From Dehalococcoidia bacterium (GTDB lineage: Bacteria; Chloroflexota; Dehalococcoidia; Bin125): a stretch of DNA of 64,000 nt. Below the pieces are notes generated by a model. It worked only from the letters and a program-made list of their open reading frames with translations. It was not told the origin of the DNA and made no database searches. Location of the stretch: the NCBI GenBank assembly GCA_963663235.2, contig CAXXNO010000004.1, positions 672,001 through 736,000 of the forward strand. Reading direction: 5' to 3'. A program made the translations under genes and the position numbers. Below, piece by piece: positions 24,018 to 35,906 of the stretch. Positions within the stretch are counted from its first letter, which is position 1. Each line of letters starts with the position of its first letter.

Positions 24018-25871
24018 GTGACCTTGTCGAGAGAACTCCCGCTCGCGGCCGCGCCGGAGAGCGCCGCGAAACCCAAGATCGATCCGATTCAGCTGCTGGT
24101 GATGGCCAACCGGGTGGACGGGATCACCCGCGAGATGACCAACACGCTCGTGCGCACCACCCAATCCGCCACCCTCGCCGCCCGCGACCTCTCCACGTCC
24201 GTCTCCACCGCCCAACACGAACTGTTCACCGCCCCCGAAGGCATCCCCGTCCACGTCTACGGCTCCGGCCTCCTCTGCGAGACCATGGCCGACCTCCACC
24301 CCGACTTCAAAGAGGGCGACGCTTTCCTCCACAACGACCCCTACCTCGGCAACACCCACCCCGCCGACCACACCGTCCTCGTCCCGGTGTTTTACGAGGG
24401 TGAGCACATCTTCACCATGTGCGTCAAAGCGCACCTGGCGGATATCGGCGATGCCCTCCCCACCACCTACATGCCCAACGCGATCGACGTCTACGCCGAG
24501 GGCGCCCTCATCTTCCCCTGCGTCCGCATCCAGGAGCACTACCAGGATGTGCCGGACATCATCCGCATGTGCGAGAAGCGCATCCGCGTCCCCGAGATCT
24601 GGTACGGCGACTATGTGGCCATGATCGCGGCGGCGCGGGTCGGCGAGCAGGGCGTCAAAGAGTTCTGCGCCAAGTTCAGCCTGGAGACCGTGAAGACCTT
24701 CGTGCGCGAATGGCTCGACTACTCCGAGCGCCTCGCCACAGCCGCCATCCGACGCCTTCCCGCCGGCCGCCTCCACGCCAGCTCCACCTTCGACCCCTTC
24801 CCCTACGTCCCCGAGGGCCTGGATCTCCAAGCCGACATCGACGTCGACCCGGACGCGGGCCACGTCACCGTGGACCTCCGTGACAACCCGGACTGCGTCC
24901 CCGCAGGGCTCAACCTCAGCCGCGCCACCGCCACGAACGGCGGCATCTCCGGGGTCCTCATGGTCCTCAACTCCATGCCGGACGTGCAGACTCAGGTCCC
25001 CAACAACGCCGGCACCTTCCGCCGCATCCATGTGCTGCTCCGCGAGAGCTGCGTCGTGGGCATCCCTGTCCACCCCACCTCCTGTTCCATGGCCACCAGC
25101 AGCGTTGCCGCTCACGTCGAGAGCATGATCGAGTCCGCCTTCGCCCGCTTGCGGGACGGCATCGGCCTGGCGGAGCCCGCCCGGGGACAGGGGCCGTGGA
25201 TGGCGGTCGTCTCCGGGTTGGACCGGCTGCACAACCAGCCCTATACCCTCTCGCTGTTCACCGGCAGCGCCGGCGGCCCCGGTGGCCCCGAGTTCGACGG
25301 CTGGCTGACGTTCCTGATGGCCGGCTCGGCCGGCCTGCAATACATCGACGCCACCGAGCTGCTCGATCAGAAATACCCCTACGTCGTCTTCGACATGCGC
25401 GTCCGGCCGGACTCCGAAGGCGCGGGGCGGCAACGCGGTGCGCCCGGGGTCATCACGATCTACGGCCCGCTCTACGATCCCCAAGAGGTCCACTACTCGA
25501 TGGACGGCATGATCAACGTCCCCAAAGGCGTCCAGGGAGGCGGCCCCGCCCGCGGACCCGCCGCTCAGCTGATCGACCGCCGTGGCGTCACCCGCGACCT
25601 GCCGGACATCGTCGGTGAACAGACAGTCCAGGCCGGAGAGCGCATCGTCTCCCTCTCCTCGGGCGGGGGCGGCTACGGCGATCCCCTGACTCGTGACGCG
25701 GAGGCCGTCCTGCGCGACGTCGTCGAGGGCTTCATCACCATCGACCGCGCCCGCGCCGCCTACGGCGTCGTCATCATGGGCGATTACGAGCGGGTCGAGA
25801 CGCTCGTCGTCGATGGTGAGGCCACGGCCGCGGCACGCGTCGCACGACGCCCCCCGTTCGCCCAAGCGTAA
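24018..25871 (+). CDS. Hydantoinase B/oxoprolinase family protein (copy 1)
   Basis: DPIQL..REMTNTLVRT, HNDPYLGNTHPADH, KAHLADIG, DSEGAGRQRG, GGGGYGDP. Confidence 0.92.
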   Translation: MTLSRELPLAAAPESAAKPKIDPIQLLVMANRVDGITREMTNTLVRTTQSATLAARDLSTSVSTAQHELFTAPEGIPVHVYGSGLLCETMADLHPDFKEGDAFLHNDPYLGNTHPADHTVLVPVFYEGEHIFTMCVKAHLADIGDALPTTYMPNAIDVYAEGALIFPCVRIQEHYQDVPDIIRMCEKRIRVPEIWYGDYVAMIAAARVGEQGVKEFCAKFSLETVKTFVREWLDYSERLATAAIRRLPAGRLHASSTFDPFPYVPEGLDLQADIDVDPDAGHVTVDLRDNPDCVPAGLNLSRATATNGGISGVLMVLNSMPDVQTQVPNNAGTFRRIHVLLRESCVVGIPVHPTSCSMATSSVAAHVESMIESAFARLRDGIGLAEPARGQGPWMAVVSGLDRLHNQPYTLSLFTGSAGGPGGPEFDGWLTFLMAGSAGLQYIDATELLDQKYPYVVFDMRVRPDSEGAGRQRGAPGVITIYGPLYDPQEVHYSMDGMINVPKGVQGGGPARGPAAQLIDRRGVTRDLPDIVGEQTVQAGERIVSLSSGGGGYGDPLTRDAEAVLRDVVEGFITIDRARAAYGVVIMGDYERVETLVVDGEATAAARVARRPPFAQA

Positions 25872-27148: not shown

Positions 27149-28966
27149 ATGGCGCCGAGCGATGCGAGCGCCACGAAACCCACGCTCGATCCGGTCCAGC
27201 TCCTGGTGATGGCCAACCGCCTCGACGGCATCGGCCGCGAGATGACCAACACCCTGGTCCGCACCGCGCGCTCCGCCACCCTGGTCGCGCGCGACTTTTC
27301 CTGCGCAATCGTCGATGCCGACCACGATCTCATCTCCGCGCCCGAGGGGATCCCCGTCCACGTCTTCGGCTCGGGGCTTCTCTGCGAGTCGATGGGGGAG
27401 CTCCACCCCGACTTCCAGGAGGGCGACGCCTTTCTCCACAACGATCCCTACCTCGGCAACACCCATCCGGCCGACCACACGATCCTGGTGCCCGTCTTCG
27501 CCGAGGGCGAGCACGTCTTCACCACCTGCGTCAAAGCGCACCAGGCCGACATCGGCAACGCGATCCCCACCACCTACACCCCGAAGGCCATCGACGTCTA
27601 CGCCGAAGGCGCGCTCATCTTTCCCTGCGTCTGGGTGCAACGCGATTATCAGGACGTCGGCGACATCATCCGCATGTGTGAGAAACGGATCCGCGTCCCC
27701 GAGATCTGGTACGGCGACTACCTGGCGATGGTGGCGGGGGCCCGCGTCGGGGAGCAGCGCCTGCAGGAGTTCTGCCGCAAGTTCGGGCTGGACACCGTCA
27801 AGCGCTTCGTCGGCGAGTGGAAGGACTACTGCGAACGGCTGGCGGAGTCGGCGATCCGAGAGCTGCCGGCCGGGCGCGTCCACGCGAGCACGGCGCTCGA
27901 TCCGTTCCCGGGCGTGCCGGAAGGCATCCCGCTGCAGGCGGAGATCGACGTCGACCCGGCCGCCGGCCGCGTGACGATCGACCTGCGCGACAACCCGGAT
28001 TGCACCCCCACCGGCCTCAATCTGAGCGAGTGCACCGCGATCAACTCCGGCATCTCGGGTGTCCTGACCGTCCTCAACTCCAAGCGCGATGCCACGGCCT
28101 CCCTGGTGCCGAACAACGCGGGGGTCTTTCGCCGCATCACCGTGCTGATCCGCGAGAACTGCGTCGTCGGGATCCCGCGACACCCCGCCTCGTGCTCCAT
28201 GGCCACCAACACGGTGGCCGATCGCGCGCTGGGCATGATCTACTCCGCCTTCGGACGTCTCGCCGACGGGATCGGGCTGGCGGAGCCCTGCTGGGGGTCG
28301 TGCCCGTTTGAAGCGGTCGTCTCCGGCTTCAACCGCAAGCGCGGGGAGCCCTACGTTTTGCAACTCTTCAGCGGCACCGCCGGCGGCCCGGCGAGCGCGG
28401 AAACCGACGGTTGGGTGACCTTTTCGATCCCCGCCGGGGGTGGTCTAGCCTACGTCGACGAGACGGAGGTGATCGAACAGAAATATCCGTTTGTGGTTTT
28501 CGAGACCAAGGTGCGCCCGGACTCGGAGGGCGCGGGGCGCCGGCGCGGGGCGCCGGGGAACATTTGCATCTACGGCCCCCTCGACGGCTCCATGGAGGCG
28601 CACTATTCCTTGGACGGCATGTTCAACGTGCCCAAGGGCGTCCAGGGCGGCGGCCCCGCGCTGCGTCCTGAGGCTTGGCTGATCGAGCAGGATGGGTCCA
28701 CGCGTTTCCTCCCCGACATCGTCGGCGAGCAGCGGATCGAGGAGGGCACGCGGCTGCTCTCGCTCTCCTCAGGCGGCGGGGGCTACGGCCAGCCGCACAC
28801 CCGCGACGCCGGAGCGGTGCTCGCCGACGTCGTCGAGGGCTACGTCACCATCGAGCGCGCCGCCGACGTCTACGGCGTCGTCGTCGCCGGCGATCCGGCG
28901 AAGGTCGAGACCCTCAGCATCGATGCCGCCGCCACGGCCGCGCGTCGCGAAAACGGAGCCCGCTGA
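27149..28966 (+). CDS. Hydantoinase B/oxoprolinase family protein (copy 2)
   Basis: Same motifs as copy 1; GAGGAGGAG RBS; TGCTAGACT extended -10-like element at ~27029. Confidence 0.93.
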   Translation: MAPSDASATKPTLDPVQLLVMANRLDGIGREMTNTLVRTARSATLVARDFSCAIVDADHDLISAPEGIPVHVFGSGLLCESMGELHPDFQEGDAFLHNDPYLGNTHPADHTILVPVFAEGEHVFTTCVKAHQADIGNAIPTTYTPKAIDVYAEGALIFPCVWVQRDYQDVGDIIRMCEKRIRVPEIWYGDYLAMVAGARVGEQRLQEFCRKFGLDTVKRFVGEWKDYCERLAESAIRELPAGRVHASTALDPFPGVPEGIPLQAEIDVDPAAGRVTIDLRDNPDCTPTGLNLSECTAINSGISGVLTVLNSKRDATASLVPNNAGVFRRITVLIRENCVVGIPRHPASCSMATNTVADRALGMIYSAFGRLADGIGLAEPCWGSCPFEAVVSGFNRKRGEPYVLQLFSGTAGGPASAETDGWVTFSIPAGGGLAYVDETEVIEQKYPFVVFETKVRPDSEGAGRRRGAPGNICIYGPLDGSMEAHYSLDGMFNVPKGVQGGGPALRPEAWLIEQDGSTRFLPDIVGEQRIEEGTRLLSLSSGGGGYGQPHTRDAGAVLADVVEGYVTIERAADVYGVVVAGDPAKVETLSIDAAATAARRENGAR

Positions 28967-30774
28967 TGACCACCGCCACCCTCGACCCGGTGCAGCTTTT
29001 TGTCATGGCGAACCGTATCGACAGCATCACCCGTGAGATGACCAACACCCTGGTCCGCACCGCCCGGTCGGGGACGCTCGCCGCGCGTGATCTCTCCTGC
29101 TCCCTCTCCACCGCCGGGCATGAGCTCTTCGCGGCGCCCGAGGGCTGCCCGGTGCACGTCTACGGATCCGGCCTCCTCTGCGAGGCCATGCAGGAGATGC
29201 ACCCCGACTTCAAAGAGGGCGACGCCTTTTTGCACAATGATCCCTACCTCGGCAACACCCACGCGGCCGACTGGACGATCCTGGTACCGGTCTTCTATGC
29301 CGGCGAGCACATCTTCACGACCTGTGTGAAGGCGCACCAGGCCGACACCGGCAACGCCATCCGCACGACCTACTCGCCCGAGGCCGTCGATGTGTACGCC
29401 GAGGGGGCGTTGATCTTCCCGTGCGTGCGCATTCAGGAGCACTACGCAGACGTCGGCGACATCATCCGCATGTGCCAGAAGCGCATCCGCATCCCGGAGA
29501 TCTGGTACGGAGACTATCTCGCCATGATCGCGGCCGCCCGGGTGGGCGAGCAGGGGATCCAGGCCTTCTGCCGCAAGTTCGGGCTGGAGACGGTGAAGAC
29601 CTTCGTCCGCGAGTGGCTGGACTACTCCGAGCGCATGACCATGGCGGCGATCCGCGAACTGCCGGCCGGCGAGGCCGAGGCGTGGAGCACGGTGGATCCG
29701 TTCCCCAGCCTCCCCGATGGCATCCCGCTGCACGCCAAGATCGCGGTCGACCCAGAGGCCGCGCGCGTCACGGTCGACTTCCGCGACAACCCGGACTGCA
29801 CGCCCACCGGCTTGAATCAGAGCCGCGCCACCGCCACGACCGCCGCCGTCTCCGGCATCCTGCACATCCTCAACGCGCGCCCGGAAGCCAAAGTGGAGGT
29901 CGCGCCCAACAACGGTGGCAGCTTCCGTCGCTTCGATGTGCTGTTACGCGAGAACTGCGTGCTGGGGATCCCGGTCCATCCCTACTCCTGCTCCATGGCC
30001 ACCTCCACGGTCTTGGAGCGCGCCATGGGCATGGTCTTCGCCGCCTTCGCTCGGCTCGCCGACGGCGTGGGCCTGGGCGAGCCGGCCTGGGGCCTGGCGC
30101 CCTACGACGGCGTGGTGTCCGGCTTCGACCGGCGGCGCGGCGAGCCCTACATGTTGCAGGTCTTCAGTGGCACCGCCGGCGGCCCCGCCGGGCCGCAATC
30201 CGACGGCTGGCTCACGCTGGTCGGCGCGGGAGCCGGCGGCGTCCTGTACATCGATTCCGCCGAGGTCATCGAACAGAAGTACCCCTACGTGCTCTGGGAG
30301 AAAAAGCTCCGCGTCGATTCCGAAGGGGCCGGCCGCCAACGCGGGGCGCCGGGCAATATTTGCAGCTACGGTCCGCTCGTGGACCCGATGGACGTCTACT
30401 ACTCGCTCGACGGGATGTTCAACCCGCCGCAAGGCGTGCGCGGGGGCGGCCCCACGCAAGGGCCCGGCGCGCACCTGCGAGAGGCAAGCGGCTCGACGCG
30501 CGTCCTTCCGGAACTCGTCGGTGAACAGCGGCTGGAGCCCGGGGAGCGGATCGTGGGCCTCTCCGCCGGCGGCGGCGGCTACGGCGATGCCCTGACTCGT
30601 GACGTGGAGGCCGTCCTGCGCGACGTCGTCGAGGGCTTCATCACCGTCGGCCGCGCGCGCGCCGTCTACGCCGTCGTCCTCACCGGCGACTCGGCGAAGG
30701 TCGAGACGCTCTCTATCGACCGCCAAGGCACCGCGGCCCGCCGCCAGGAAGACGGGCGATGCAGTACGGCCTGA
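28966..30774 (+). CDS. Hydantoinase B/oxoprolinase family protein (copy 3)
   Basis: TGATG overlap with copy 2; MTTATLDPVQL.. HNDPYLGNTHAAD, KAHQADTG, GGGGYGD. Confidence 0.93.
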   Translation: MTTATLDPVQLFVMANRIDSITREMTNTLVRTARSGTLAARDLSCSLSTAGHELFAAPEGCPVHVYGSGLLCEAMQEMHPDFKEGDAFLHNDPYLGNTHAADWTILVPVFYAGEHIFTTCVKAHQADTGNAIRTTYSPEAVDVYAEGALIFPCVRIQEHYADVGDIIRMCQKRIRIPEIWYGDYLAMIAAARVGEQGIQAFCRKFGLETVKTFVREWLDYSERMTMAAIRELPAGEAEAWSTVDPFPSLPDGIPLHAKIAVDPEAARVTVDFRDNPDCTPTGLNQSRATATTAAVSGILHILNARPEAKVEVAPNNGGSFRRFDVLLRENCVLGIPVHPYSCSMATSTVLERAMGMVFAAFARLADGVGLGEPAWGLAPYDGVVSGFDRRRGEPYMLQVFSGTAGGPAGPQSDGWLTLVGAGAGGVLYIDSAEVIEQKYPYVLWEKKLRVDSEGAGRQRGAPGNICSYGPLVDPMDVYYSLDGMFNPPQGVRGGGPTQGPGAHLREASGSTRVLPELVGEQRLEPGERIVGLSAGGGGYGDALTRDVEAVLRDVVEGFITVGRARAVYAVVLTGDSAKVETLSIDRQGTAARRQEDGRCSTA

Positions 30775-30921
30775 TGATGCTGAGCTCGCGCGAGCCGATC
30801 TCGCGCTTCGCGACGATCGCGCGGCGGCGGCCCGTCGACACGCCCGCGCGCGCCTGGCATCATGCGGGCCCAGGGGTCGCCGTCGCGCGGCCCTGAATGG
30901 CAAGGGAAGGGACGCGCGAGG

Positions 30922-31953
30922 ATGGAGATCGGCAACCACATGGACACTCACGGCGTCGCCATTCGCAGCGACACCGAGTTCTGGCTGGAATCGATTCCGC
31001 CGCAAGACATCCAGCCGGTGAAGTATGCGCAACTCGCCGAGCGCGTAGGCTTCCATTCGCTCTGGTTCTCGGACCACGTCACCTTGCCCTTGCAGACCAC
31101 CAACGTGCACATCGCCAACCCGGAGACGGGCAAGCGGCACTACCCCACGAAGCCGGTCATGTTCGACGCCCTGACCACCATGGCGGCCGTGGCGGTGACC
31201 ACGGAGCGGATCAAGCTGGCGACCTCCGTGCTGATCTCCCCCTACCGCCCGCCCCTGCACGACGCCCGGCAGTTCGCCACCGTCGACTGGCTCTCCAACG
31301 GACGGGTGATCGCCGGCGTGGGCGCGGGCTGGGCCAAGGAGGAGTTCGAGGCGCTGGGCCTGCCCTACGACCGGCGCGGCGACATGACCGACGAATGCAT
31401 CGAGATCTACAAGCGCGCGTGGACGGACGACGTCGTCGCCTTCCACGGCGAGTTCTACAACTTCGACAACCTCTCCATGGACCCCAAGCCCGTGCAGAAG
31501 CCCCACCCGCCCATCGTCTTCGGCGGCCAGTCGATGGCCGGCGCCCGGCGATCGGCGCGGCTCTGCGACGGCTTCTACCCCCTCTTCTCCCATCCCAATG
31601 CCCGCCCCGCTGACAACGATCGCTTCCTGGATGCGATCCGGCGCGAGGCGGAACGCGTGAACCGCGACCTCTCGGACTTCATGCTCATGGGCGTCACCGC
31701 CGCCCGCATCACCGACGCCGACGATCCGGACGTCAAGAAAGACCGGCGCCCCATCTGCGTCGGCACGCCGGAGATGATCCTCTCCGACCTCCAGGGCTTC
31801 GCCGAGGCGGGCTACTCCCTCATGATCCTCTCGCAGGAGACCCGCAGCCGCACCGCCGCCGAGCTATTCGAGCGCCTGGAACAGTTCGGCAACGAGATCA
31901 TCCCCACCGCCAAAGGCTTCAAGCCCGGCGGTGAGTGGATGCCCGTGCCCTAG
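30922..31953 (+). CDS. LLM-class (probably F420-dependent, Rv2161c-like) oxidoreductase
   Basis: AERVGFHSLWFSDHV, TERIKLATSVLI.PYRPP, LSNGRVIAGVGAGW..EEF, PKPVQKPHPPI. Confidence 0.9.
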   Translation: MEIGNHMDTHGVAIRSDTEFWLESIPPQDIQPVKYAQLAERVGFHSLWFSDHVTLPLQTTNVHIANPETGKRHYPTKPVMFDALTTMAAVAVTTERIKLATSVLISPYRPPLHDARQFATVDWLSNGRVIAGVGAGWAKEEFEALGLPYDRRGDMTDECIEIYKRAWTDDVVAFHGEFYNFDNLSMDPKPVQKPHPPIVFGGQSMAGARRSARLCDGFYPLFSHPNARPADNDRFLDAIRREAERVNRDLSDFMLMGVTAARITDADDPDVKKDRRPICVGTPEMILSDLQGFAEAGYSLMILSQETRSRTAAELFERLEQFGNEIIPTAKGFKPGGEWMPVP

Positions 31954-32237: not shown

Positions 32238-33087
32238 TTAGCTGCGCCCTTCGATCAGCGTGGCTACCTGATCTAGCACCGGCATCACAGTCTCCGTCGG
32301 GGCGCTAGGCAGCTCGAAGAGGCATCTGTCGACGCCCAGCTCTTGGTACGCGTCCAGCATGCCGGCGTCCGGCTTGGTCCACAACGTGACGCTCACCGAC
32401 TTGGGATCGCGACCGATGCGCTCCGCGCGCTCGCGCAGGTCTTTCATGTCCTCGGCCATCCGGCGCGGCGGCGAGAACAGCGGCAGCCAGCCGTCGGCCC
32501 ACTCCACCACACGCTGGCGGGACCACTTCGTGCTAGCACCGATGTAGATCGGCGGATGGGGCTGCTGCACCGGCTTGGGGCTCACCGTGGTGCGGGGGAT
32601 ATCGACGTACTTCCCGTGATACTCCGCCTCGTCGCTTTGCCAGAGCGCTTTCATCGCCTCCACCCGCTCCCGCGCCACCTGCCAGCGCTCCTTGAAAGGC
32701 GTGCCCAGCGGCTCCATCGCTTCGGCCAGCCAGCCCGCGCTGACACCGAACAGGAAGCGCCCGCCGGAGAGACGGTCCAGGCTGGCCACTTGCTTCGCCG
32801 TGACGATCGGCTCCCGCTCGTTCACCAGACAGATCGCCGTCCCCACTTTCAGCGTCGTGGTGACGGCCGCGAGCGACGCTCAGCGCCACGAACGGGTCGT
32901 AGGAGCGGAAGTACCGTTCCGGCATCTCGATGCTCTTCGTGCCGGGGAAGGGCGTCACCCGCTGCGAGGGAATGTGCGGGTGCTCCGGCATCCAGAGCGA
33001 ATCGAACCCGCGCTCCTCCACGGCCCGTGCCAACGCAGGGACGGGCATCGATTTGTCGGTGAAGAACGTCGAGACGCCGTATCGCAT
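32238..33087 (-). pseudogene. LLM-class F420-dependent oxidoreductase, frameshifted near 32870
   Basis: MRYGVSTFFTD..EERGFDSLWMPEHPHIP..DPFVALS in one frame; GTAICLVNEREP..LDRLSGGR..PKPVQQPHPP in another. Confidence 0.88.
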
Positions 33088-33405: not shown

Positions 33406-34590
33406 ATGAGCGTGCGAGGCAAGACGGCGATCGTAGGGTTCTATGAGGTCCCGACGCTGAAGGAGTATCCCGACCGCAACACCATGAGCCTCTTGGCCGA
33501 GACCGCCAAGGGCGCGATCCGCGACGCAGGCCTGCGCAAAGAGGACATCGACGGTCTCATCTCCTCGGAGGCGCTCAATTCCATCACCCTGGCCGAGTGG
33601 CTCAACATCAAGCCACGGTATACGGCATCGATGACGGTGCACGGTTCCAGCGGGGCCAATTCGATCGCGACGGCCGCCTCCGCCATCGCCGCTGGACTCG
33701 CCAACTACGTGCTCTGCATCTTCGGCGGGTCACGGCCGCGCAGCAGCTCGCGCATTGGTGGCGCCCAGCTCCCGCGCGGTGGCGGCGGCGCCGCCAGCGG
33801 CATCACGGAGTGGGAGGCGCCGTTTGGGCCGGCCATCGGCGCCAACGCCGGCTACGGCCTGATCAAGCAGCGGTACATGTACGAGTACGGCGCGACCCAG
33901 GAGCAGTTCGCCAAGTGTGCCGTGGACGAGCGCTTCAATGCGCTCACCAATCCCAATGCCCTCTGGAAGGGGCGGCCAATCACGATTGAGGATGTCCTCA
34001 ACTCGCGCTTCATCAACGATCCGCTGCACCTGCTGGAGTCGGTCATGCCCTGCTCCGGCGCAGCGGCCGTCATCGTGACGACTGCCGAGCGCGCCCGCGC
34101 GCTCCCCAATCCACCGGTCTTTGTTCTGGGGATCGGCGGCCCCGCCACCCGCCACGACATGATCTGGCAGGAGGAGTCGGTGACGACGACACCGGTGATC
34201 CTGTCGGCCCCAACCGCGCTGCGCATGGCGGAATATAACGCCAGCGAGATGCAGTTTGCAGAGTTCTACGACTGCTACACCATTCTCGTCATGATCTGTC
34301 TGGAGGACGCCGGCATCTGCCCCAAGGGCGAGATCGGCCCCTTCTACGAGTCCACCGACACGACCTACAAGGGCACGTTCCCCATCAACACGGACGGCGG
34401 ACAGATCGCCGCCGGCCAGCCCGATGGTACGGCCGGTGGCTTCCGCCACGTTGTAGAGGCGACACGCCAAATCATGAAGAGAGCCGACGATCGCCAGGTC
34501 GAAAAAAGCGACCTGTGCCTCGTCAATGGTTGAGGCGGCACCGCCAGCGTGATGTGCACGCTGGTGCTCGGTTCGAGCGCCACCCTTTAG
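33406..34590 (+). CDS. Thiolase-like (SCP-x/Ltp2-type) protein; in-frame UGA at 34531-34533, probably read through to TAG 34590
   Basis: KTAIVG, DAGLRKEDIDG, EFYDCYT, PINTDGGQ; the C-terminal loop reads LCLVNG-UGA-GGTASVMCTLVLG, completing the family's final GG-strand motif. Confidence 0.85.
34531..34566 (+). other. Candidate bacterial SECIS hairpin
   Basis: Stem CGCCAGCGTG (34542-34551)/CACGCTGGTG (34557-34566), loop ATGTG starting 18 nt after the UGA. Confidence 0.5.
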
Positions 34591-34621
34591 CAGCCAAGCC
34601 GAACAAATTGGGAGGAGTGTT

Positions 34622-35038
34622 GTGGCGGACGAATACACCAAACCGATTCCGCGGCCGGAGAATATCGAACTGACCCAGCCTTTTTGGGACGCGGCGAAGC
34701 GCCACGAGCTCATCATGCCCCGCTGCCGGAAGTGCGCCAGCTACTTCTGGTACCCGCGTCCCCACTGTCCCGACTGTCTCACCGAGGACTGGGAATGGTC
34801 AGCGGTCAGCGGGCGAGGCCGGCTCTACACCTTCACCGTGGTCCGTCAGCCGCAGAACCCCGCCTTCGCGGACGACACCCCGTACGCCTACGCCGTAGTC
34901 CAGCTTGACGAAGGCGTCCGGATGTTATCGAACGTCGTCGATTGCAAGATCGACGACCTGAGCGTCGACATGCCTCTCCAGGCCACCTTCGATGACATCA
35001 CCGACGAATGGACGCTGGTGAAGTTCAAGCCGGCCTAG
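34622..35038 (+). CDS. DUF35 Zn-ribbon/OB-fold protein (thiolase partner)
   Basis: KPIPRP..PFWDAAKRHEL..CRKC..PRPHCPDC, SGRGRLYTFTVV, LDEGVRMLSNVV; GGGAGG RBS. Confidence 0.93.
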   Translation: MADEYTKPIPRPENIELTQPFWDAAKRHELIMPRCRKCASYFWYPRPHCPDCLTEDWEWSAVSGRGRLYTFTVVRQPQNPAFADDTPYAYAVVQLDEGVRMLSNVVDCKIDDLSVDMPLQATFDDITDEWTLVKFKPA

Positions 35039-35042
35039 GCGG

Positions 35043-35201
35043 CCGGGCTGCCACCCCGTCACCTTCACGCAGACCCCCGCCAGCATCCGCCGCGTCGCTC
35101 CCGAGCTGGGCGAGCACACGCAAGAGATCCTGAAGGAGCGGTTGGGGTATAACGACGAGCAGATCGCCGAGTTGGTGATCGAGGGTGTGATCACGTCGTA
35201 G
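35043..35201 (+). pseudogene. C-terminal remnant of a CaiB/BaiF (class III) CoA-transferase
   Basis: PVTFTQTPASIRRVAPELGEHTQEILKERLGYNDEQIAELVIEGVI*; no start codon. Confidence 0.8.
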
Positions 35202-35288: not shown

Positions 35289-35906
35289 TCAGCGCAGAGG
35301 GGAGAACGGCGCGGGGGTGAGAATCCTGGTCTCCTGGCTCACGAGAAACTCACGTGTGGCGGGTGGCCAGTTGGGGTCTTTGAACGCCTCGGCACGAATC
35401 TGGTCGCGGGCTTCGAGACTCTCGTAAGGCGAGATGTGGGTCCACCGGTTGAGAGCGCCGATTTCGGTGTACCAGCACGCCGCCAGCGGCGAATACTTCT
35501 CCCGATGCACGATGGCAGCGGCCCAGCGATCGATCACGGCGGGGATGGAGAGCGGTCGATAGGTGTAGGTCCGCATCTCGTAGATGTTGCCCAACTCCTG
35601 GTCGCGGTCCAGGTCGCGCATGAAGGGCGCGCCCACTCAGATCTCAGACTCCATGTTCAGTAACACGGCTGTGTGTGTGGGCGGCCAGTGCGGGTCCGCA
35701 GCGGCAGCCGCCCGCACTGCCTGCCGCTGGGCGAGGTCCTCATACGGCCAGACATGGATGGCCTGGTTGAGGGCACCCAACTCCGATCGCCAGAACGCCC
35801 CGAGCCGGGAGTATTGAGTCCGATACGGGAGGGCCTCGGCGAACCCTCTCTCGAACTCGGCGAGATCACCCGGGGCGAAGGTGTACGTGCGGACCTCGTA
35901 CAACAT
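35289..35906 (-). pseudogene. Two-domain NIPSNAP family protein interrupted by in-frame UGA (35637-35639)
   Basis: LYEVRTY..HVWPYEDL and IYEMRTY..HISPYESL domains in one frame, joined by ESEI-UGA-VGAPFM. Confidence 0.85.

Follow-up and report, generated by a model that had tools for sequence, protein, structure and literature searches.

Selenoproteins are mostly thiol-oxidoreductase-like, and to our knowledge the thiolase-fold enzymes that act on esters of coenzyme A (CoA) are a class not known to use selenium. We describe here a gene of this fold that carries an in-frame TGA codon and is followed by a DUF35 gene, at positions 33406 to 34591 of a stretch of 64,000 nucleotides (hereafter the window; positions 672,001 to 736,000 of contig CAXXNO010000004.1 in assembly GCA_963663235.2 of a Dehalococcoidia bacterium, phylum Chloroflexota), and compare its predicted product with the nearest described systems. 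The best match in both sequence and fold is CtSal of Comamonas testosteroni, a bile-acid side-chain aldolase solved with its DUF35 partner Shy (9MYR). According to the paper on this complex (PMC12329534), the catalytic residues are Tyr302 and Cys304 of a Y-D-C-Y motif, Gln347 and Gln352 stabilise the thiolate, the backbone of Gly89 contacts the beta-hydroxyl, and the oxyanion hole consists of the NH of Gly391 and the side chain of Gln161.

The protein of the window shares with CtSal a thiolase fold lacking the nucleophile Cys (Gly89, corresponding to G80), the YDCY motif, both Gln residues, a DUF35 partner and a TGG/UGG loop with the oxyanion glycine (Gly391, corresponding to G378). CtSal has Thr where the present protein would have selenocysteine (Sec), and its DUF35 forms the C-terminal part of a hydratase and has a Cys3His zinc site, whereas the DUF35 protein of the window is free, 138 residues long and of the canonical C4 type. 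The steroid aldolase TcLtp2-ChsH2 (6OK1, E-value 6.6e-49) also has a DUF35 partner and a thiolase fold that lacks the nucleophile Cys and uses a Tyr of a YDxF/Y motif as base, but Ltp2 carries YDHF and Tyr344, while the present protein has YDCY, with Q338 at the position of Tyr344, which is the solution of Sal and not of Ltp2. A preliminary description of this DNA had likened the protein to the Ltp2 type; the kinship with DUF35-partnered aldolases stands, but CtSal is the nearest relative, and Ltp2 and the true thiolases are more distant. The SCP2-type and classical thiolases and the archaeal complex of thiolase, 3-hydroxy-3-methylglutaryl-CoA (HMG-CoA) synthase and DUF35 (6ESQ/6ET9) share the fold and the CoA-ester chemistry; the catalytic Cys of thiolases lies in the HDCF/YDC loop (SCP2) or the CxG loop (classical), C290 of the present protein belongs to the loop equivalent to HDCF, and DUF35 serves as scaffolding in the archaeal complex.

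A Sal-type protein interrupted by TGA

The ATG at 33406 is preceded by a ribosome-binding site (GGAGGGGAG), and a single frame runs from it to the TGA at 34531-34533, which is codon 376 in the context LCLVNG-TGA-GGTASVMCTLVLGSSATL. Eighteen in-frame codons follow (GGTASVMCTLVLGSSATL) before the TAG at 34589-34591, and the read-through product has 394 residues; both the TGA and this length had been pointed out in the preliminary description, and our re-reading of the frame from the sequence agrees. We regard it as very probable that codon 376 belongs to a real selenoprotein gene. That the whole of 33406-34591 encodes a 394-residue selenoprotein of the Sec clade described below, whose UGA-376 is decoded via Sec-tRNA(Sec) and SelB and which has a DUF35 partner, is a compound claim that we hold with good, if slightly lower, confidence.

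The predicted protein matched Pfam Thiolase_C_1 (1.7e-41), and its best solved relative was 9myr_A (E-value 1.4e-75, Foldseek TM score 0.90, 37% identity). No NCBIfam model reached its cut-off (the best, NF004811, gave 288.2 against 421 bits), and no selenoprotein model of that collection matched. An AlphaFold2 model built on an alignment of 97 sequences had a predicted local distance difference test score (pLDDT) of 93.0 and a predicted template-modelling score of 0.93; residues 370-377 and 382-389 form a hairpin with pLDDT of 95-98, and strand 382-389 is placed in the core sheet, so that in this model the tail after the TGA is the last beta-strand of the fold. The reference classical thiolase for a profile alignment was taken from a relative, none being above the cut-off in the window's own genome. 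In this alignment G80 stands against the nucleophile Cys (TVHGSSG against KVCGSG), Q338 against the His of the GHP motif and YDCY against NEAF, and thus the earlier observations that the nucleophile Cys is absent, the GHP His replaced and YDC kept hold good. To judge from these residues, the protein does not function as a classical thiolase, and since both the nucleophile Cys and the GHP His are absent, the standard ping-pong mechanism would be unavailable unless Sec376 supplied the nucleophile.

A HMMER alignment to CtSal (chain numbering minus 24) placed Tyr302, Cys304, Gln347, Gln352, Gly89 and Gly391 at Y288, C290, Q333, Q338, G80 and G378, respectively; on this alignment only Gln161 of the Sal catalytic set is not kept. 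The residues G80, Y288, D289, Q333 and Q338 were found in all 60 Sec-bearing copies collected below wherever the alignment covers them. Sec376 aligns with Thr389 of CtSal, two residues N-terminal to the oxyanion glycine (G378). The preliminary description had proposed that Sec could supply the catalytic group, and this part has to be given up: because the set of Tyr, Cys, two Gln and Gly is intact, Sec would not be replacing a missing group but would be added beside an intact Sal-type dyad.

Conservation of the TGA codons and their hairpins

We surveyed whole genomes of the class, species-representative genomes and metagenomes, and found TGA at codon 376 in 60 gene copies at 58 loci from other genomes and metagenomes, loci which are kin, so that these counts are not independent events. 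In these 60 copies the in-frame tail after the TGA reads GG-x-x-S-x-M-x-x-L-(V/I)-L-G, with the true stop 18 codons on except in a few of them; the search for homologues with TGA and conserved downstream coding, which the preliminary description had suggested, was thus positive. When the best 120 homologues were taken from 5.8 billion database proteins, 106 terminated exactly at the residue aligned with G375, ten were full length, with Asn (6), Cys (2), Ser (1) or Val (1) at column 376, and four were of neither kind. Of the 401 genomes sampled from the class, at least 50 had the TGA form (from 150 of 180 matches listed), with up to four copies per genome in one family of the class, and relatives were present in marine, groundwater and soil metagenomes; the named relatives are metagenome-assembled genomes of Dehalococcoidia and Chloroflexota, where the family is widespread. 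The truncated entries are named "thiolase family protein" or "acetyl-CoA acetyltransferase", and more than 100 database clusters so named end at residue 375 and some at residue 289. Recognition of the family would correct the annotation of such entries, which seem to be cut at recoded TGA codons.

Metagenome contigs from three other studies (runs X2, X5 and X7) span 33406 to 34572-34586 with 0, 1 and 0 differing letters, respectively, and none at 34531-34533; the TGA, for which the preliminary description had suggested a check of raw reads, was present in all three. An error from TGG to TGA, or a pseudogene, is ruled out by these contigs and by the recurrence of TGA in the 58 loci. Genome-wide reassignment of TGA was also rejected, as other thiolase-like paralogues in the genome have no internal stops and the TGA is restricted to two columns. 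Near-identical DNA was found in about nine further studies. A metatranscriptome run (X19) gave only two short pieces, of which one comes from a relative and crosses the TGA region; we do not take them as evidence of expression. As a separate observation, many short pieces from other organisms matched 34506-34560 at 90% identity or more in metagenome contigs, and the summed depth there was 106 and 78, as compared with 4-12 in the flanks; nucleotide conservation of the stretch comprising the TGA and the hairpin is unusually high across relatives.

For phylogeny, 129 near-full-length copies were analysed with FastTree after masking the Sec columns as X (support values are local). A Sec clade of 57 rows obtained support of 100 and comprised 38 copies with Cys-290 and Sec-376, 14 with Sec at both, three cut short and two with Asn; the last two (L036 and L054) are apparent reversions. 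Its sister clade (support 99) consists of 20 Sal-type proteins with Asn-376. Among the residues that distinguish the two clades (each at 80% or more within its clade) are C371 against Ala in the sister clade, M383 against Gln, F346-R347 against Met-Ser, and also T317 and T319. On this tree the Sec-bearing forms make up a monophyletic subclade of the Sal-type thiolase-fold enzymes.

Nineteen of the 60 copies, all of which also have TGA-376, carry a second TGA in place of the Cys of YDCY (giving YD-U-Y). These double-Sec paralogues are L037, L046-L050, L056, L057, L065, L068, L069, L126-L129 and L133-L136, and each of L051, L052 and L126 carries two tandem copies. TGA-290 aligns with Cys in the 41 other Sec-376 copies and in 24 Asn forms, so that site 290 shows, by its pattern of residues, the classical Sec/Cys pairing, at a residue of known function in CtSal. 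It has a hairpin of its own with the loop at +21 to +25 and a core, GGCCGU-N-N-GCCUCGA, that is invariant in 19 of 19 copies, although the double-Sec proteins are only 50-64% identical to the protein of the window; the fraction of pairs formed was 0.86 in double-Sec forms, as compared with 0.62 where residue 290 is Cys and 0.42 in the Asn forms. Four database proteins (P0139, P0144, P0169 and P0181) terminate exactly at ...YD and are probably double-Sec genes ended at the first TGA by gene callers. The occurrence of Sec, Cys or Asn at 376 and of Sec, Cys, Gly or Pro at 290 provides a natural mutational series for the Sal-type active site.

Downstream of TGA-376, the 10-bp hairpin with an AUGUG loop noted in the preliminary description was found as described. 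The loop of this candidate Sec insertion sequence (SECIS) begins 18 nucleotides (nt) past the A of the UGA and occupies +22 to +26 from its U, which is presumably the position in the fdhF element of Escherichia coli. The local fold (-34.7 kcal/mol, z = -2.17, with 7 of 200 shuffles folding as well) is by itself only mildly unusual. Over 27 distinct sequences the core helix was paired in 85.8% of cells, and two-sided changes retained core pairs, namely GC to CG in five sequences, where a wobble change in a Val codon (GTG/GTC) is offset by one in a Thr codon (ACC/ACG), and UA to AU in two, where the replacement of Val by Glu is offset by that of Thr by Ser. A two-helix structure was 79.4% paired, against 24.6-53.2% with the partner slid, and the covariation score was 0.164 against 0.099 +/- 0.011, a value reached in 0 of 500 shuffles; these covariation figures overstate independence, the sequences being related. 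More telling are the stems that differ between lineages and stand at the same place (CCGGGAC/GUCUCGG, CGUCACA/UGUGACG, CGUCGC/GCGACG and GCGAGCG/UGCUCGC) and a register-free count of uninterrupted stems of at least 6 bp with the loop centred at +19 to +27. Such a stem was present in 37 of 50 distinct Sec forms but in only 2 of 24 relatives with Asn-376 and in 7 of the 52 other paralogues, with 12-16% in shuffles, and hence the conservation of the hairpin, on which the earlier proposal was to stand or fall, was borne out together with its loss in Asn forms. One Asn paralogue (L036) has lost two stem pairs and shares a genome with a Sec form (L035). Synonymous codon identity was 2598/4512 = 0.576 after the TGA against 4629/10340 = 0.448 in the 45 preceding codons. 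A second hairpin, GGUGCUCG / GUU / CGAGCGCC, stands directly before the stop. It is conserved in two registers, with GUUCUCG/CGAGAAC and GUCCUCG/CGAGGAC as compensatory variants, and may either belong to the SECIS or serve translational coupling to the DUF35 start.

The genome of the window (2.75 Mb, 91.9% complete) contains the machinery for Sec, and all of selA, selB, selC and selD, whose presence the preliminary description had left to be confirmed, were detected. Only one tRNA exceeded the Rfam tRNA-Sec cut-off (70.9 against 47 bits); ARAGORN reports it as tRNA-SeC with anticodon UCA, and its acceptor end has G and then CCA, a discriminator that by sequence is of the Ser/Sec type and not the U of tRNA-Sec-like tRNA-Cys. 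SelA matched with 445.9 bits, the SelB wing domain with 72.6 bits within a frame of 637 residues, and SelD with 357.8 bits. The selD gene has its own in-frame TGA (L119, G000:C4:103776-104699; ...AVCGG-U-GSKYG...), followed by a small hairpin with a 4-bp stem and a 5-nt loop at +20 to +24, whose stem was drawn by eye and is too weak to use. Across the class, SelA was found in 300 of 401 genomes, of which one (G259) is unpublished, and in 48 of the at least 50 genomes with the TGA form among the matches listed.

Both Pfam domains expected of a DUF35 partner were matched in the gene downstream (OB_ChsH2_C, 9.7e-24; zf-ChsH2, 1.5e-12), as had been anticipated, and the gap between the two genes is 30 nt in the window. 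Among the 58 Sec-form genes with room downstream, 57 have a DUF35 gene at a distance of 9-139 nt, the exception being L035; two further copies were left out of this count because they had no downstream room. Because relatives have been solved with DUF35, the protein most likely works, by analogy, in a complex with the DUF35 protein on an acyl-CoA thioester.

Possible roles of selenium and rival explanations

In the mechanism we propose, the UGA at 34531-34533 would be decoded as Sec by Sec-tRNA(Sec) and SelB under the direction of the downstream hairpin. Sec376 would then belong to the active-site loop at the C-terminus, where it precedes by two residues the glycine equivalent to that of the CtSal oxyanion hole, and is expected to lie beside Tyr288 and beside Cys290 of YDCY, whose equivalent in CtSal is the catalytic acid; by homology, the enzyme in complex with DUF35 would act on a CoA thioester. 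The role we prefer is that of a chalcogen pair: Sec376 and Cys290 or Sec290 may together take part directly, as a proton shuttle or a nucleophile, in breaking a C-C bond of a beta-hydroxy- or beta-keto-acyl-CoA; we consider this nearly as probable as its contrary. The loss of the GHP His fits it, since a selenolate needs no activation by His. A more specific proposal, about which we are rather more doubtful, is that Sec376 with Cys290 or Sec290 is a selenium catalytic device, acting through an acyl-selenoester nucleophile or as an Se/S proton relay in a retro-aldol or retro-Claisen reaction; the acyl-selenoester version would amount to a thiolase rebuilt without Cys89 and His348. If this were true, Dehalococcoidia would use the device in up to four paralogues per genome to degrade CoA-activated organic acids, and the thiolase superfamily would gain its first selenoenzyme, among the few with Sec in non-redox C-C bond chemistry.

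Several observations weigh against these proposals or against the reading of the gene as a selenoprotein, in addition to the kinship of the surveyed loci. In the hairpin loop (AUGUG or AUGAC) neither of the first two positions is G, a caveat raised at the outset that stands, and 13 of 50 Sec forms, mostly of one genus-level group (L014, L138-L148), have an interrupted stem only. A search of 34450-34650 against Rfam with E-values up to 10 gave only two chance matches on the other strand, and the RNAalifold consensus of alignment A2 was weak (-2.55 kcal/mol), pairing the UGA with CUCGG and keeping three pairs of the first hairpin, for which reason the hairpin was tested by the named structure and the register-free count given above. 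No SelA was found in two of the genomes with the TGA form, namely G040, which is 71% complete, and G111, which is 95% complete. As to the active site, the oxyanion-hole Gln161 of CtSal aligns with Ala146. The loop had been taken for the CxG site of thiolases, and on this the alignments disagree: the equivalence with Gly391 of CtSal puts U376 at the Cys of Cys-x-Gly, but hhalign, run with a single-sequence template and opening a two-residue gap, aligns the classical CxG Cys with C371 and not with U376. Cys had also been expected at column 376 in non-Sec homologues. It is indeed found in P0068, P0076 and P0136, but as a minority residue, an unusual pattern for a catalytic Sec; the usual residue is Asn (six of the ten full-length homologues and the whole sister clade of 20), with Thr in CtSal. 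The relatives with Asn or Thr keep the Sal-type dyad, which would mean that it functions without any chalcogen at 376.

The three full-length Cys-376 proteins all have another residue than Cys at 290, namely Gly, Gly and Ala, and this pattern suggests that the side chains at 290 and 376 reach the same spot. In thiolases the acid/base Cys alternates between the CxG loop of the classical type and the HDCF loop of the SCP2 type, and the occurrence of Cys-376 without Cys-290 looks like this alternation.

Two alternatives would remove selenium from the protein altogether. The UGA could be read as Cys by a SelC* tRNA-Cys with SelB, or as Trp by a near-cognate tRNA, giving a full-length, selenium-free enzyme; both GWGG and GCGG would be plausible loops, and Cys occurs naturally at this column in P0068 and P0076. 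According to the accessible part of PMC5389517, SelC* tRNA-Cys species with a UCA anticodon exist and can decode opal codons as Cys, and Firmicutes, Thermodesulfobacteria, Nitrospirae and Proteobacteria are reported to have them, Chloroflexi not being named there. The genome of the window, however, encodes SelA and a Sec-type SelD, the tRNA above the Rfam cut-off has G and not the U73 of SelC* before CCA, and plain read-through would exert no selection for a hairpin at a fixed place, one that the Asn forms have lost; we consider such decoding very improbable. Still less credible is that UGA-376 is a true stop, with a 375-residue enzyme lacking the last strand and with the downstream RNA serving another purpose such as translational coupling to DUF35. 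All public annotations end at residue 375, and the stretch from the TGA to the start of the DUF35 gene has two conserved hairpins, as this explanation would have it, but the 18 codons are in frame in all 60 copies, their amino-acid changes are conservative, and the tail matches residue for residue the C-terminal strand of non-Sec homologues and CtSal, a strand that the structural model confidently places in the core sheet. Moreover, a stop at 290 in the double-Sec forms would cost 105 residues including the Gln loop.

A third alternative accepts Sec376 but confines it to a redox function in protection or regulation, outside the chemical step: a selenenylsulfide between it and Cys290 would shut off the aldolase reversibly and prevent over-oxidation in oxic water. 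No residue of the Sal catalytic set is missing from the Asn forms, so that catalysis would need no chalcogen at 376, and Sec/Cys pairs are typical of redox couples, most families in Table 1 of a review of May 2026 having UxxC or CxxU motifs (PMC13188914); the near-identical DNA in further studies and the marine and groundwater records of relatives would also suit such a role. Opposed to it is the finding that the catalytic Cys itself is Sec in 19 copies, an indication that selenium acts in the chemical step, as well as the absence of Cys-290 from all three Cys-376 forms, which is what a relocated catalytic group and not a redox pair would leave; furthermore, no thioredoxin-like partner is conserved nearby. 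We judge the purely redox role unlikely, though it is the main alternative for Sec376 and by no means as improbable as the two selenium-free readings.

Read as a selenoprotein, the family differs from those already catalogued. Table 1 of the same review lists 119 prokaryotic selenoprotein families and subfamilies and is called the most comprehensive inventory (PMC13188914); this table has no thiolase, SCP2, Ltp2 or Sal-like family, in agreement with the earlier remark that thiolases are absent from the standard families. Full-text searches of the literature gave no thiolase-type selenoprotein; the supplementary tables of selenoproteome papers could list one. The present family resembles the catalogued ones in having UGA with a hairpin in the coding region, Cys homologues and database entries that are cut short, and in carrying one or two Sec in a chain, but in place of their predominantly UxxC/CxxU redox motifs it has NG-U-GG and YD-U-Y in a C-C lyase fold. 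A CoA-ester enzyme that cleaves C-C bonds and has one Sec in its catalytic loops, or two as in a third of the members, would widen what is known of selenium chemistry in biology, and the family bears on the selenium demand and the carbon metabolism of these Chloroflexota.

Features of the locus and neighbouring genes

Table 1. Coordinates in the window of the predicted selenoprotein gene, its motifs and the surrounding features
Feature	Position	Strand	Remarks
Hydantoinase B/oxoprolinase-family genes, three in a row	24018-25871, 27149-28966, 28675-30774	+	E-values 1e-110 to 1e-115
Luciferase-like monooxygenase	30862-31953		After the hydantoinase B/oxoprolinase row
Split luciferase-like monooxygenase	32238-33087	-	Two overlapping frames: N-terminus 32533-33087; 32238-32846 = Bac_luciferase 70-224
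Predicted Sal-type thiolase-fold selenoprotein gene	33406-34591	+	394 codons and TAG; gene callers end at codon 375
Gly80	33643-33645	+	Aligned with CtSal Gly89 and with the nucleophile Cys of thiolases; invariant in alignment A1
YDCY motif (Y288, D289, C290, Y291)	34267-34278	+	Equivalents of CtSal Tyr302 and Cys304
Gln333 and Gln338	34402-34419	+	CtSal Gln347 and Gln352; Q338 at the thiolase GHP His
UGA predicted to be read as selenocysteine 376	34531-34533	+	NG-U-GG loop; recurrent TGA, independent contigs, Sec machinery
Candidate SECIS hairpin 1	34542-34566	+	Arms 34542-34551/34557-34566; loop AUGUG 34552-34556; 6-bp core 34546-34551/34557-34562
Second conserved hairpin	34563-34581	+	Directly before the stop
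Stand-alone DUF35 partner, 138 residues	34622-35038	+	C-x2-C-x10-C-x2-C zinc ribbon and OB fold
Family III CoA-transferase, C-terminal remnant	35040-35201	+	53-codon open frame directly after the DUF35 gene
NIPSNAP-domain genes, two adjacent	35289-35906	-	115 and 89 residues; Pfam

A conserved pathway neighbourhood beyond DUF35 was sought around the Sec-form genes and not found. The neighbours vary, including carboxyl transferase, family III CoA-transferase, HMGL-like lyase, acyl-CoA dehydrogenase, aldo-keto reductase and phosphotriesterase genes, and, judging from these assignments, are generally of acyl-CoA metabolism; no steroid-pathway genes were present in the neighbourhood. An all-against-all clustering of neighbouring open reading frames was swamped by alternative-frame ones, the DNA being of high GC content.

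In the window itself, luciferase-like monooxygenase genes and three hydantoinase-B-family genes lie upstream of the pair, and the remnant of a family III CoA-transferase gene, two NIPSNAP genes and a flavin monooxygenase-like gene lie downstream. The split luciferase-like gene represents a frameshift, either real or from assembly. The CoA-transferase frame is 87% identical to the C-terminus of a paralogue of 410 residues at G000:C12 (Pfam CoA_transf_3), and because the rest of the gene is missing at the locus, we read it as a deletion remnant.

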